Shown one piece after another: positions 959 to 31,953 of a DNA stretch of 33,589 nt; position 1 is the stretch's first letter; every line of letters starts with the position of its first letter. A program made the translations under genes and the position numbers. The notes beneath the pieces were generated by a model. The model ran no database searches. It was given only the letters and a program-made list of their open reading frames with translations, and was not told the origin of the DNA. This DNA is from Seison nebaliae. Lineage: Eukaryota. The stretch covers positions 1 through 33,589 of the forward strand of contig JALJEE010001167.1 in the NCBI GenBank assembly GCA_023231475.1. Reading direction: 5' to 3'.

Positions 959-2698
959 ATGTTCTTAAAAAGCGATTTCAGTCCCAATCATCTCAAATGT
1001 CTATTAACTTTCTTTGGCTTATTATTAATCTTCTCAGCACATGGTTTGAACTACTGTTGGGGTTACCGTTACATTCATCTGCGTTAATGATAAAATTCAA
1101 ATTAATTAGATAATTTGAATATTTATTATACATCATATTTACGCAACAGATGTGATCAACGAATTAGATATTCTGATACGATTTGGGTGAAAACGATCAA
1201 TCCGCTTGGTCAAGGTTTGGGTGCAGTATTGGGAGGTATTCTACATCGTCACATAAAAGCCAAGAAAGTTATTTCTTTGGGTTGTATAATATATAAGTTT
1301 GTTCATTCTATGTTCATCAACGTCCAACTATTATTAAAACATATTATTTTCTTACATATTGTTAGTCTTGGTATATTCCTCAGTTATTTCACTATTCAAT
1401 ACAATCTTCCCACATTCATATTCAGTTATGGATTTCTATTTGGCTTAGGTGCCAACATTGTGTATGGTGTCATTCTACAAAACATGACGCAAGTTCATTT
1501 ATTCCATTCTCTTATTCATTCTCCCTAATAGTGGATGACAAAATATAGAGGAATATTCATAGGAATTGGTTCGTCAGGCTATGCTCTTTCTGGAATTATG
1601 TTCAACAAATTAATTGTTTATTACGTTAATCCGAAAAATAAGAAGCCATTAGATTACGATAAAAAGAATCCAGATGAAAAATATTTCGATGACGATGAAC
1701 TTCTCGATAAAATTCCCAAATTAATACTCATCATGGGTGTGGTATTTGCGGCTATACAGATATGTGGCATTTTGTGCACAATGAATGCACCAGAATGTGC
1801 ATCGAATCGAACGGAAGATAACAGAAAAAAATCGGTAAAGAAACAATTGGGAAAGATGAAGAATTTCTGGAGCGCATATAAATATCGAAGGAATTTCTTC
1901 TTGTTCCCTCTAATTATGTGTTTCCATTTATTCGCCTATTATGTATTCATGTCAATTTATAAAGTTTAACCATTTCACATTAAATCCAAAACTGATGGTT
2001 TAATTTCGAAGAATTTCGCATTTAAATTCGTTCCGGATGATAATTTTTTAGGAACCGTTGCTACTATTGGTGCTGTTGGCAATTTCCTGAGATTTATTCC
2101 CGTTTCATTTTATGATCAACTTAAATTTAAGGTTTTCTTCTCGTATTCTTTCGTGTACCATATCTCTCTAACAATTCTATCTTAGACGAATGCTTTATTA
2201 AATTTGACATGCGCTATAGTCATCTCATGTTTGATGCCTGTGACACCGTTATTATGGAAATGGGTATATGCCATGTTCATTTTCACATTCTACTTATTCA
2301 TGTCCGCCTTATATCCCATCGGATTTCTTGGGGTTTGTGAATTCTTTGGTGTGGAAAATGGATCTTTTATGTTCGGCATCTTTTCTGCTACATTAGTTTT
2401 TTTTAATTTTCTATTCAATCTTTAACATTTCCTTAGGTGACTGTTATGCCAATTTTAACAGTCGCAACGAAACCTTTATTCAATTACAGTTATGAGATAC
2501 TCTTTCTATACGTATCTTCTCTACTAATTATTTGTTCAATTCATTTTTTTTCTAATTCTAATCATTTTTTCAGCTTTCATCGCAACTTTATTTCTGAAAG
2601 CACCGTCCTTTCAATCGGAGAAGGAAACTGATAATATGGAAACATCTCAACATCAATTTTTAAACGATCAAAAAATAATTTCTTGGAATGAATCTTGA
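959..2698 (+). CDS. MFS transporter, oxalate:formate antiporter (OxlT)/monocarboxylate-like, ~466 aa, 8 exons
   Basis: Exons 959-1061, 1110-1296, 1366-1492, 1532-1963, 2012-2131, 2186-2395, 2437-2533, 2574-2698 join in frame via GT-AG introns of 39-69 nt. Multi-TM protein with family-like WDNLNIYYTSY, W..KYRG..IG...SGY and YKNF...DD.FL segments. Confidence 0.8.
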
Positions 2699-2776
2699 AA
2701 AATTTTTAACTAGAAATAAATGTGCAATTTCATTAGAAGAATTTGTCCCTTCTCTAATTCTCCTTGTGTCGAATGT

Positions 2777-2874
2777 AAGTTTATGCGAATGAGAGAATCA
2801 TCCAATTTTTTTCAATTATTCAAATCCATCAAATTCATCTATCCAGTAAGAAAACGATTATTTTCAGCTTTTCT
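2777..2874 (+). repeat. 98-bp dispersed copy of ABCB10 coding sequence 6739-6836
   Basis: Direct comparison gives 97/98 identity (T2811 vs C6773), same orientation. Confidence 0.95.
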
Positions 2875-28689: not shown

Positions 28690-29775
28690 TCATAATCTAC
28701 ATCTCCTAAGGAATTTAGACAATCGAGATCTCCGATGAATAATATTCGAAATTTCTGTTATTGATAAAATTTTACGAGCCGCCGTCGATCGATATAACGA
28801 CGTGTCTAACGTTGTCAATTGTCGAGGATGATAGACTTGTTCAGTTACTGTTTCAATTGGGGTGAATGGAGTTGGTTCTCTAGAACTTTTCCATTTTTCA
28901 TTAACTTTTATTTTCCCAGAGAGACGACTCATTAAACTTTTCGGTTTCTTCAACATTTCTAATAATTTCTTACTATTCTTTCGCTTTACTATTTTGGACA
29001 TGATAAATCTTTTCAAATTTTTTTCTTTATCCGTTTCATCCACAAAATATTCTTCATCCGTTTTCATCGATTCATCACTACTCTCATCATTCAAATTATT
29101 CTCTGGGAAAAATTTACTGAAATTTATCGCATTTTTTGTCATCGATTCTTCAGAGAAAACTTGATTAGTTGTGGAACGTGGATATGATCTAAATGAGAAA
29201 CGATCATCTGAATCATCAAAACGATCAGTGAAATTGAATTCGGTAGATTCTTTCAGACGATATGGTTTTTCAGTTAAATTAGTTGTCAAAGTTTCATCAG
29301 AAAAATATCGAGTATTCTTTTTTAAATTCTCTCCATTACATTTAATTGATTTGATAATTAATTCGATCACATCAAAAGTGAAATCCATACCACCATACAG
29401 AAATAAGACACAATAAGAGAGTTTGAACAGGAAATAAAATCTGGTGTGAAAGTGGAAAGACTTTACAAAATATTCGAACATCGTCAAAAGAATGACGAAT
29501 ATCCAGTTTTTGAGGAGATGTGCCGGTTTGGAAGTAATCCAAAAACCGAATACATATTTGCATGTCCTATTCACTAGCACGATGAGTACACCAATATTTA
29601 ATATCAAGTTAAAAAGAGTGGAGAAATCAATGTTGTCTTCTTTATCTGAATACAATTCTTTTCCCATTGATTTATTTTCATCGAACCATTTGTTCCCCTT
29701 GTCGAGTTTTGAGTAGTCTATTGGACTTTCGGGTATAACTGGCGGAAAGCCAAAGATCGATTCGAAAAAGTTCAT
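28690..29775 (-). CDS. Membrane protein, possibly divergent REEP/TB2-DP1-HVA22 family, 361 aa
   Basis: Intact ORF with two hydrophobic segments. NWIFVILLTMFE...RFYFLFKL resembles the REEP YW.V...E...PFY..K pattern; long charged C-terminal tail. Confidence 0.6.
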   Translation of the reverse strand: MNFFESIFGFPPVIPESPIDYSKLDKGNKWFDENKSMGKELYSDKEDNIDFSTLFNLILNIGVLIVLVNRTCKYVFGFWITSKPAHLLKNWIFVILLTMFEYFVKSFHFHTRFYFLFKLSYCVLFLYGGMDFTFDVIELIIKSIKCNGENLKKNTRYFSDETLTTNLTEKPYRLKESTEFNFTDRFDDSDDRFSFRSYPRSTTNQVFSEESMTKNAINFSKFFPENNLNDESSDESMKTDEEYFVDETDKEKNLKRFIMSKIVKRKNSKKLLEMLKKPKSLMSRLSGKIKVNEKWKSSREPTPFTPIETVTEQVYHPRQLTTLDTSLYRSTAARKILSITEISNIIHRRSRLSKFLRRCRL

Positions 29776-30124
29776 TGAGAGAATGGGTTCAAAGCAGAAT
29801 GAAACGTAACATAACTTAAAATTGAATTCGTTTCAAAGTTTTCGTTAAAGTAAAACTAATGTTAAATGGATTTGGATTTCATCTGCTTTTCATCGTTCAA
29901 TCAATTCACATTCTCTCAATAATCCAATTAAAACGATTCGTCCTTAATCGTTGTTGTGAGAGAATTTTTTCTTACCGTGCACCAAATGTGCACGGGAAAT
30001 GCATCTCTCTCATCCGAATTCAACTGATTAATTGAAAATACAATTTTAAATTGTATAGGAGAAAAATATATTAAAAAATTAAAATTCTTGTTTATGAAAA
30101 TTATTCAGAATAACATTGGTCGCT

Positions 30125-31953
30125 TCATTTTTGAAGAATTCCATCAGAAACGCGGACAGGATAAATATTGTCGTCCGAAGCAATGGAGCGATCACTGTAA
30201 CTGCGACGGATAACAGGCGGTTGTGTATTTCCGACGGTTCCAAGAACATGAGATGAAAGAGCTCTATGCAAATATTTTCCACCAAAATTTCTCACCACCG
30301 TACGAACTGGTGTAATCGTTTCTGATTGATGATGTACAAAGACATGTGAAGATAAGCGAGATAGAATTGGAAACTTTTCACTTCGATTGAACATTTCGCC
30401 ATGATTACGAGAAGAACAATAAAAGTAAGTAAGAGAATGAACGTCCAGAGCATCGTATAAGTCAGAAATCGGAGATTAAGTTTCTTCTTCCGAATACAAG
30501 TTAACATGCCGACGGCTTTAAATGGAAAGAGTTTCGGAGAAATATAAGTTAAGAAACATTGAACTATGACTGCGGACGGAGATGTGTGACTTAATTCTTT
30601 CTCTGAGAACATGAATAATACTGTGATGCCAAATTTCGAAGGACATTTTAGGAGAATATTTATGGACAATGGCCAATATTCTAGGATAGAATATTTCCAT
30701 AAAAAAATTATATTCTATTTTATCGAATCGACTGTTTTTCTTCCTTGTTACAAACACGTCCAATCTAAGGGGAATGATATCTAGTTGATCTGCCAGTGTA
30801 TCTATCATAGAAGTGATGAGCTTGAAAAGAATACACAAGAAATGCACAAAATTATTATGAGTAATTTACTCTAACAATGTTCTTAATATTCGTTCCAAGA
30901 TTACCATTATAAATGAGAGTTCCCGTTTGATGAAAATGAATAACGAAATTTTCTCCGTGTTCAAAACTTGTAGTTAAGACCTATCGATGTTTTGTATCTT
31001 TTTCTGGTTTGGAAGTAAAATGAATAATAACTTTCTTACATCGATCCTAAACAATTGAATGAATGAGAGAAGTGATTCATTCAGAATGAATTTTGGAATA
31101 AACCTTTATAAATTCTCTTCGAGGTATTATTAAAGAAAAATTATTTTAGACGAAATCAACAACTAACATTGCATGAAAATGTTTAGGCCGCGACTAGAAT
31201 GATTCATCAAATTTTATGGTAAATGTAAGAAGGAACTTTCCAATTCGTCGTATGTTGAATGACGGAGAAGTTGGAATTATAAATATGATTAGCAGGTCCC
31301 CCATACACATCTGATGGAGTACTCACATAGATAACACAAGGAATGATTCTATATTTAGAGTTCCTATAAAACCAGGCAACTATTTTGACTTCATCTTAAA
31401 AAGAAATTTGAAATTTTCAATTGAAATCGTATTGAACTTATAGTCCTTCGATTTTCATAGAAAACCGAAGAGGAAACATTATAATGATTGAAGATATTAT
31501 ATGGTTTAATATCGCAATGGACTTCTCTCCTACCATAAATCTAAAAATTTGATGGAATATCTTCTCATTAATGATTAAATAACAAATGAGAATTAACTGA
31601 ATCACCATAAACTCTCACTTCCAAAATAGAAGTTCCGCATCCTTCACATTTATTAAGAGCAACATGTAACCGTATTCTATAAATGAGGAACGTGAAAACA
31701 TGTTCACATTCCAACAAATCTACCAACATATGAGTACAAGTTGTGGAGTTTATAGGCAGAGTTTTATGGATACATGGTCTTATATCTCTAAATGGAATAA
31801 TGATAGTATCATGAATAAATCGTTCACCATTTGATGATTGAGTGTTCAGAATAAGAATATTCAATAATGCTAACAGAAAAACTGATGTTCGTTAGAGCAC
31901 TGACGAAGGAGAAATTTTCAACTTTTTAAAATAATTAATAATTTAGTAATCAT
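30125..31953 (-). CDS. Orphan type-I membrane protein (signal peptide, Cys-containing ectodomain, one TM, cytoplasmic tail), ~438 aa, ~11 exons
   Basis: Exons 31953-31923, 31869-31598, 31540-31438, 31394-31237, 31193-31168, 31116-31104, 31046-31032, 30980-30876, 30820-30565, 30515-30375, 30321-30125 join in frame through ten 43-57 nt GTT..AG introns. N-terminus MITKLLIILKTLLNILIL; TM FLTYTMLWTFILLLTFIVLLVIM. Confidence 0.6.

Follow-up and report, generated by a model that had tools for sequence, protein, structure and literature searches.

Near-uniform GTT donors in predicted introns of Seison nebaliae and a likely change in the machinery that reads them

Animal introns usually start with GTA or GTG. 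In a 33,589-nt contig of Seison nebaliae, the whole of which is called the window below, we built nine gene models with 34 predicted introns and found T at position +3 in 32 of them, the exceptions being A at 10044 and C at 30732, the latter in a gene of low confidence. In the seven recognizable genes, 21 of 22 introns began with GTT. We confirmed that the GTT donors are a real and strong feature of this DNA, the junctions themselves being predicted, and GTT donor use is most likely genome-wide. It is likely that, in the splicing machinery of this animal, an epizoic member of Rotifera/Syndermata (PMC8351084), the base recognizing intron position +3 has changed.

Donor composition and controls on junction choice

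A previous, sequence-only reading of the window had reported GTT at 34 of 35 donors in nine genes with a single exception, at 22 of 23 in the recognizable genes, and G at +5 in only 7 of 35. We re-modeled the genes by enumerating every frame-keeping GT-AG join at each break, which gave 32 of 34 in nine genes, 21/22 and 6/34, respectively. The 12 donors listed as examples and the exception at 10044 all read as described (13/13), but that exception is probably joined by a second one (GTC at 30732). The reading had also named introns of 291 and 359 nt as GTT introns; the 359-nt CDC37 intron stood, whereas the donor of the 291-nt CELF intron is not fixed, an in-frame GTG lying three bases upstream (15602).

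The interiors of the introns were 49% T and 5% G, and positions +7 to +20 were 54% T in all introns and 58% T in the recognizable genes. A comparison of +3T with the T content of introns had been proposed as a check, and within the window it came out clearly: the excess of +3T (32/34 versus 49 to 58% T) had p values of 1.7e-8 against intron interiors (T 0.49), 3.9e-7 against +7 to +20 of all introns and, for the 22 introns of recognizable genes, 1.2e-4 against +7 to +20 (T 0.58). The frequency of T was 94% at +3 versus 26% at +4 and 21% at +5, the counts (n=34) being A14/C9/G2/T9 at +4, A13/C8/G6/T7 at +5 and A11/C7/G0/T16 at +6. Thus, the claim that +4 to +6 are unconstrained holds in that no strict motif is present, but G at +5 (18%) is commoner than the 5% of interiors (p=0.006), and T at +4 is rarer than in intron DNA (9/34, p=0.007). 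With respect to the GTRAGT consensus (R, purine), +3 was a purine in 1/34 and +5 was G in 6/34. The last exon base was G in 11/34 and C in none.

All 34 introns have GT...AG ends; GC donors were permitted in the join ranking and the blind parse described below, and none won in the kept models. Lengths were 39 to 62 nt in 31/34 introns, with a median of 49.5 nt. The acceptors had a U-rich tract followed by YAG in 26/34 (Y, pyrimidine) and AAG in 8/34, with T at -6 in 24/34. The AAG acceptors lie at 2011, 13670, 13791, 21175, 26827, 30821, 31117 and 31395, and given these the 3' site looks relaxed too. A branch-point motif YTRAY was found in 19/34 and CTRAY in 4/34, as counts without background comparison. 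Besides, in-frame tandem donors, in which GTT stands beside GTT, GTG or GTA (1056/1062/1068, 15602/15599, 30875/30869 and 31618/31597), offer natural tests of the +3 preference.

As a control against circular junction choice, we ranked 9 to 47 candidate joins per break by profiles made from homologues, the window's own protein being excluded. The best join was the modeled one at 6/6 breaks, by 12 to 76 bits over the best other donor; five of these were GTT and one GTA. Together with two MPP10 junctions placed by Pfam positions, 7/8 junctions fixed by homology alone were GTT. The same method was applied to UBE2Q loci of other eukaryotes (28 loci with 36 junctions, many loci being near-identical and none a known rotifer), from which 5 junctions with a margin below 3 bits were dropped and the remaining 31 merged into 25 distinct ones. 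In this control, +3T occurred in 1/25 and +5G in 21/25, and the difference in GTT (7/8 versus 1/25) was significant (Fisher p=1.4e-5). The sole GTT donor of the control set (GTTCGA, L010:639-684) starts a 46-nt intron. An initial homologue search with the N-terminal part of UBE2Q gave nothing among 7974 candidates.

A donor-blind parser, in which +3 to +6 were masked and higher intron penalties used, returned GTT in 28/36 introns: 19/22 in recognizable genes (p=0.005 versus 58% T), 2/2 in a small gene without assigned family and 7/12 in the region of a low-confidence membrane-protein gene, where the parse probably had to merge two genes into one. It picked donors other than 1964, 2132 and 11271. 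At low intron penalty, the parser inserted spurious, dispensable introns with varied bases at +3 into T-rich exons, and these results were discarded. In a further parse the donors were restricted and introns held to 36 to 70 nt, with longer ones permitted for CDC37 and the small gene. GTR donors alone gave no open frame in 7/9 genes, and GTT donors alone gave a minimal parse in 7/9; GTR and GTT sites are about equally numerous in the gene bodies (308 versus 296). The failures of the GTT-only parse were the ZDHHC gene, which requires its GTA, and the membrane-protein region, which has no such parse at 70 nt or less.

Intron positions in UBE2Q are informative about history. Intron 1 (23390) matches in site and phase a GTAAGT intron in control locus L013 and a GTGTGT intron in L025, and intron 2 (23543) matches GTGAGT introns in L013, L019, L023 and L025, so that, as judged from the control loci compared, two of the three Seison introns stand at ancestral positions. 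This suggests that old introns were converted to GTT and not replaced; the 34 introns have no visible common sequence past their ends. A lineage-wide change in donor recognition, as first proposed from the sequence, is therefore supported by +3T above background, by GTT at ancestral positions and by the inability of GTR donors to build most genes.

Published transcripts provide a view beyond the window. GMAP alignments of Seison transcripts are tabulated in supplement 2 of PMC8351084, of which 2 of 400 parts were counted. This sample held 70 distinct gaps shorter than 100 nt, with a median of 51 nt and 61/70 at 39 to 62 nt, close to the window introns in length and slightly longer (p=0.035). 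In the sample, 62/70 short gaps were recorded as deletions. GMAP writes a deletion where either splice site scores below 0.8, and these calls are compatible with weak or odd splice sites genome-wide, the end being unspecified. A search of the table for block lengths and coordinates of the window models gave no fitting row among the matches listed, which is no evidence either way.

The intron at 10044 has the one well-supported non-GTT donor (GTATTCTT) and may be a relic of a U12 intron. The minor spliceosome includes the protein ZMAT5. In the accessible part of PMC12256650, ZMAT5 is listed as missing in Seison and both acanthocephalans among the matches listed. The U12-type donor RTATCCTT (PMC3488318) was matched exactly by 0/34 introns, and the 10044 donor (GTATTCTT) was one base off. 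Other ZDHHC paralogues carry U12 introns; for ZDHHC3/7 nothing was found in the available portions of the literature on U12 introns in ZDHHC genes (PMC5224493 and PMC2831892).

Candidate explanations for the third intron base

Among the candidates of the sequence-only reading, the donor pattern is fitted best by an A opposite +3, in U1 or U6, and this is also the simplest solution. We assign a probability of roughly 0.45 to a U1 small nuclear RNA (snRNA) with A opposite +3, aided by short, G-poor introns. In that case, the (pseudo)uridine of U1 opposite +3 would have become A, and a short helix with G+1, U+2 and U+3 would anchor the donor, U1 keeping its normal register with three to six pairs. 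The U6 ACAGA contact at +4/+5 may be relaxed, possibly following loss of the U6 methyltransferase METTL16, and the missing information would be supplied by intron definition over an intron that is short, poor in G and rich in U. Old GTR donors would have been converted one by one, not replaced by new introns.

Comparison of the 32 GTT donors with 238 unused GTT sites is consistent with this proposal. The real donors were enriched in -2A, -1G, -1A and +4A and lacked -1C, and their summed U1-type match (-2A/-1G/+4A/+5G/+6T) was 1.94 versus 1.29 (p=4e-4), which suggests that U1 is bound in its usual register. The mean number of Watson-Crick pairs, out of nine, was 4.1 with the usual U1 target and 5.0 with the changed target, a gain that arises by construction. 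Because the usual U1 would pair better with A, something appears to select +3U positively, and since +3T is strict and C is as rare as A, the partner is probably A and not a G in wobble with U, which would favor C. Low G downstream was the best separator of real from unused GTT sites, although the area under the curve of 0.90 is partly circular. Intron definition by length and composition, which the sequence-only reading had offered as one explanation, is thus supported in a helper role, but alone it cannot explain a near-fixed +3T.

Several points weigh against a changed U1. U1 is invariant across 227 yeast genomes despite donor shifts (PMC10581693), it is unchanged in Thecamonas and Micromonas despite such shifts, and the two U1 versions of Fritillaria do not differ at the 5' end (PMC13326754), as far as the consulted portions of these sources go. 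The U1 change of Entamoeba accompanies a strict 6- to 7-nt motif; +5G is mostly lost in Seison, a loss for which a single U1 change does not account. There is no snRNA gene in the window. The intron-only part of the leftover U1-type signal is weak (p=0.07). All junctions are predictions, 26/34 donors resting on frame, length and judgment, and the blind parser reached only 28/36 GTT. Exons avoid GTT no more than GTA as cryptic donors (observed/expected, 0.91 and 0.84, with many other triplets lower), and GTRAG is not depleted (22 versus 16).

In its widest form, the proposal would be that an intron-rich animal swapped the 5' code of its major spliceosome for GUU plus a short, G-poor intron. The snRNA base opposite +3 would have changed in U1, U6 or both, METTL16 would have been lost, and thousands of ancestral GTR donors would have been converted. 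As a whole, we regard this scenario as tentative and somewhat doubtful.

The change may instead lie on the U6 side, which we judge unlikely: the ACAGAGA box base facing +3, which we take to be human G44, would have become A, or the box would have been remodeled, so that +3U is checked at the U1-to-U6 handover. Such a change would spoil the target motif of METTL16 and allow its loss. Among the matches listed for the BUSCO table of PMC12256650, Seison is the only one of 25 syndermatan columns with METTL16 marked 'Missing'. Loss of METTL16 or of U6 N6-methyladenosine (m6A) moves donors from +4A/+5G classes to exon-end (U5) pairing (PMC11732430), and Seison exon ends are purine-rich (1.9 versus 1.4 purines at -3 to -1 in unused GTT sites, p=0.001; -1C, 0/34); lowered U6 m6A is likewise found alongside odd donors in Fritillaria (PMC13326754). 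However, the signature of METTL16 loss is +4U (PMC10581693), whereas +4T is depleted in Seison (9/34), and the +4T/+5G/+6T score of unmethylated U6 did not distinguish real donors from unused sites (p=0.33). Besides, the ACAGA box is invariant in 240 fungal genomes (PMC10581693). Misses in BUSCO are also weak evidence, with 356/954 genes missing in Seison, and among the matches listed 4 of 33 major-spliceosome rows are missing, including LSm2, an unlikely true loss (PMC12256650). The absence of METTL16 from this table is accordingly a lead. In the same table, among the matches listed, SNRNP27 and PRP8 are listed as complete in Seison, and U5-40K, LSm2 and SPF45 are also listed as missing in Seison and present in both acanthocephalans.

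We consider it quite unlikely that the snRNAs are unchanged and that altered U1C, LUC7 or PRP8 favor +3U, with a TIA1-type protein on the U-rich intron start recruiting U1. Most known donor shifts, in the literature as far as it was accessible, came without snRNA changes, Entamoeba U1C is highly diverged (10.1101/2022.06.08.495308), and the Seison intron starts are T-rich (54% T at +7 to +20). Against this, the usual U1 pairs better with +3A, which should then stay common and was found in 1/34, and a U-tract binder would raise +4T as well, which is depleted.

Two further explanations fare far worse. That donors decayed to bare GT without any rewiring, +3T merely mirroring T-rich introns and the picking of junctions, would agree with introns of 49% T and 5% G and with the 8/36 non-GTT donors of the blind parser, but it is very improbable in view of +3T at 94% versus 26% at +4 and 21% at +5, of 19/22 GTT in recognizable genes in the blind parse (p=0.005 versus 58% T), and of 7/8 homology-fixed GTT junctions versus 1/25 in the control. 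Hardly credible are donors in a shifted register (GUU-AAGU, U1 slid by one base), contradicted within the window by +6G in 0/34 and by a shifted score that fails to set real donors apart from unused sites (p=0.11). Equally hard to credit is a spread of introns that derive from transposons and carry GTT ends, against which stand the ancestral positions of two of the three UBE2Q introns and the lack of visible shared sequence past intron ends.

Gene models and other features of the window

All nine gene models give open frames, that of the small gene coming from the donor-blind parse (Table 1).

Table 1. Genes and predicted introns of the window
Feature	Position	Strand	Details
MFS transporter gene	959..2698	+	489-aa open frame; 6 predicted introns, all GTT
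MFS introns	1062-1109, 1493-1531, 1964-2011, 2132-2185, 2396-2436, 2534-2573	+	
ZDHHC3/7-like intron 1	9789..9830	+	GTTATT, 42 nt; top of 9 joins by homologue hidden Markov model, 210 vs 134 bits
ZDHHC3/7-like intron 2	10044..10090	+	GTATTC, 47 nt; top of 29 joins, 126 vs 100 bits for other donor
GM2-activator-like (ML domain) gene	11066..11746	+	introns 11271-11322 (GTTCTT), 11420-11463 (GTTAGA)
CELF/Bruno-like gene	12882..17496	-	5 predicted GTT introns: 15599-15309 (291 nt), 14399-14347, 13844-13791, 13713-13670, 13165-13118
CDC37 intron	20817..21175	+	GTTAAT, 359 nt; one-intron solution in both blind parses
UBE2Q intron 1	23390..23451	+	GTTTTT, phase 2; top of 26 joins, 57 vs 39 bits
UBE2Q intron 2	23543..23590	+	GTTAGT, phase 0; top of 22 joins, 121 vs 109 bits
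UBE2Q intron 3	23763..23815	+	GTTCCA; top of 28 joins, 127 vs 104 bits for other donor
Small gene without assigned family	24856..25596	+	predicted introns 25035-25161, 25243-25286, both GTTAA; low confidence
MPP10 gene	26311..28409	-	651-aa open frame; GTT introns 28359-28316, 27087-27040, 26877-26827
Membrane-protein gene, low confidence	30125..31953	-	hand model, 441-aa open frame, 10 predicted introns
Donors of membrane-protein gene	31922, 31597, 31437, 31236, 31167, 31103, 31031, 30875, 30374; 30732	-	GTT, except 30732 = GTC

The MFS gene has a weak match to TIGR00890 (oxalate/formate-antiporter-like; E=0.0019, one exon), and short non-GTT introns yield no open frame in it. Its donor at 1062 has in-frame GTT neighbors at 1056 and 1068, and that at 1964 has an in-frame GTA at 1943. 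In three DNA-like read sets (X1, X2 and X5), single contigs span 557-2806 with two to three differing letters and all six introns present, indicating that these introns are no assembly artefact; on 1-6150 the sets behave as DNA and are silent on splicing either way, and a fourth set, X6, contributed nothing there. A contig of X1 and X5 links 2425 to 2621, omitting 195 bases of the 3' end of the MFS gene, and may derive from a paralogue or from an allele with a deletion. Some 100 bases are duplicated on the plus strand at about 2776-2870, just behind the MFS gene, and at 6740-6835, the start of an intronless ABC-transporter gene. A reverse-transcriptase fragment at 2-732 on the minus strand (RVT_1, E=6e-6) is multi-copy, with a depth of 235 to 704 over 1-615 versus 9 to 17 for single-copy DNA.

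A ZDHHC exon is 100% identical to the public S. nebaliae protein SNEBB_008793, and the public model P0292 has the identical two joins. The final exon of the ML gene matches GM2 activator (E=7e-7), a PDB search with its middle exon gave chance matches only, and an in-frame GTC at 11280 competes with its donor at 11271. The stretch that separates this gene from the CELF gene contains, at about 12180-12720, simple repeats rich in TG as well as a 20-base tandem array. In the CELF gene, the donor at 13165 was the top of 47 joins (161 versus 131 bits), and the other four introns are supported by frame and the donor-blind parse only. The predicted CELF/Bruno-like protein of about 1,375 aa has a very long Asn/Gln/Ser-rich linker from RRM2 to RRM3. 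One CDC37 exon matches CDC37_N, and the other has a weak CDC37_C match.

The Pfam Mpp10 profile is continuous over the MPP10 intron at 27087 (365 to 368, two codons lying between them) and continues within one position over that at 26877. The small gene at 24856..25596 is based on the donor-blind parse, and a non-GTT parse of it exists too. The membrane-protein model has a signal peptide and requires micro-exons of 13 and 15 nt; seven exons searched gave no Pfam match, and its protein may resemble a Cys-loop channel. A single-exon gene with a weak TLDc match (E=0.001) lies at 28690-29775 on the minus strand, and this and the 30125-31953 gene are probably two separate genes.

Comparison with known donor changes and significance

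The closest system found is Entamoeba, with GUUUGU donors and U1 ACAAAC, a different matched change being present in Mastigamoeba (Roy and Bowser, 10.1101/2022.06.08.495308). There, as in Seison with its near-fixed +3U (32/34), U replaces +3A almost everywhere in GT-AG introns, but Entamoeba is intron-poor and has GUUUGN in 97 to 98% of introns, whereas the animal Seison has 34 introns in nine genes of the window. The strict +4U/+5G/+6U of Entamoeba is not found in Seison (+4T 9, +5G 6 and +6T 16 of 34). The yeast switch from +4A to +4U, linked to METTL16 and SNRNP27K (Parker et al. 2023, PMC10581693), is likewise a lineage donor change, and METTL16 is listed as missing in Seison; however, it concerns +4 while +3 and +5 hardly vary, whereas Seison has switched +3, has gained no +4U and has SNRNP27 listed as complete.

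In the animal Fritillaria borealis, splice signals are rewired across the genome and U6 m6A is reduced, but its introns escape GT/AG, its donors are G-rich and its U2AF is duplicated, whereas Seison keeps GT-AG ends and has G-poor donors (PMC13326754). The AG//GUNNN (U5-type) class of animals and plants resembles Seison in weak +4 to +6 and reliance on the exon end, yet it has a strong exonic AG and a free +3, in contrast to -1G in 11/34 and a fixed +3 here (PMC11732430). Thus, the Seison donor works like the transformed donor of Entamoeba without strict +4 to +6, and it is of neither the shifted-register nor the yeast +4U type. A literature search that covered few subscription papers gave no paper describing GTT donors, be it in Seison or elsewhere among animals; in the available text of PMC8351084, 'splic' occurs once and 'snRNA' never, in that of PMC12256650 neither 'splic' nor 'intron' occurs, and in that of PMC3464624 the passage on bdelloid tubulin holds no data on +3.

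Default splice models can mishandle the Seison genome, as the 62/70 short gaps recorded as deletions in the GMAP sample illustrate. The pairing of U1 with the donor is among the most conserved eukaryotic interactions, and where we found a rewritten +3 in the literature, it was in intron-poor protists. If true, a switch in an intron-rich animal would mean that many thousands of sites changed along with the machinery, and whether the machinery or the sites came first could be tested by comparison with rotifers and acanthocephalans at the intron positions that Seison shares with these relatives. Seison would then be a natural experiment on the separate contributions of +3, +5G and U6 m6A.

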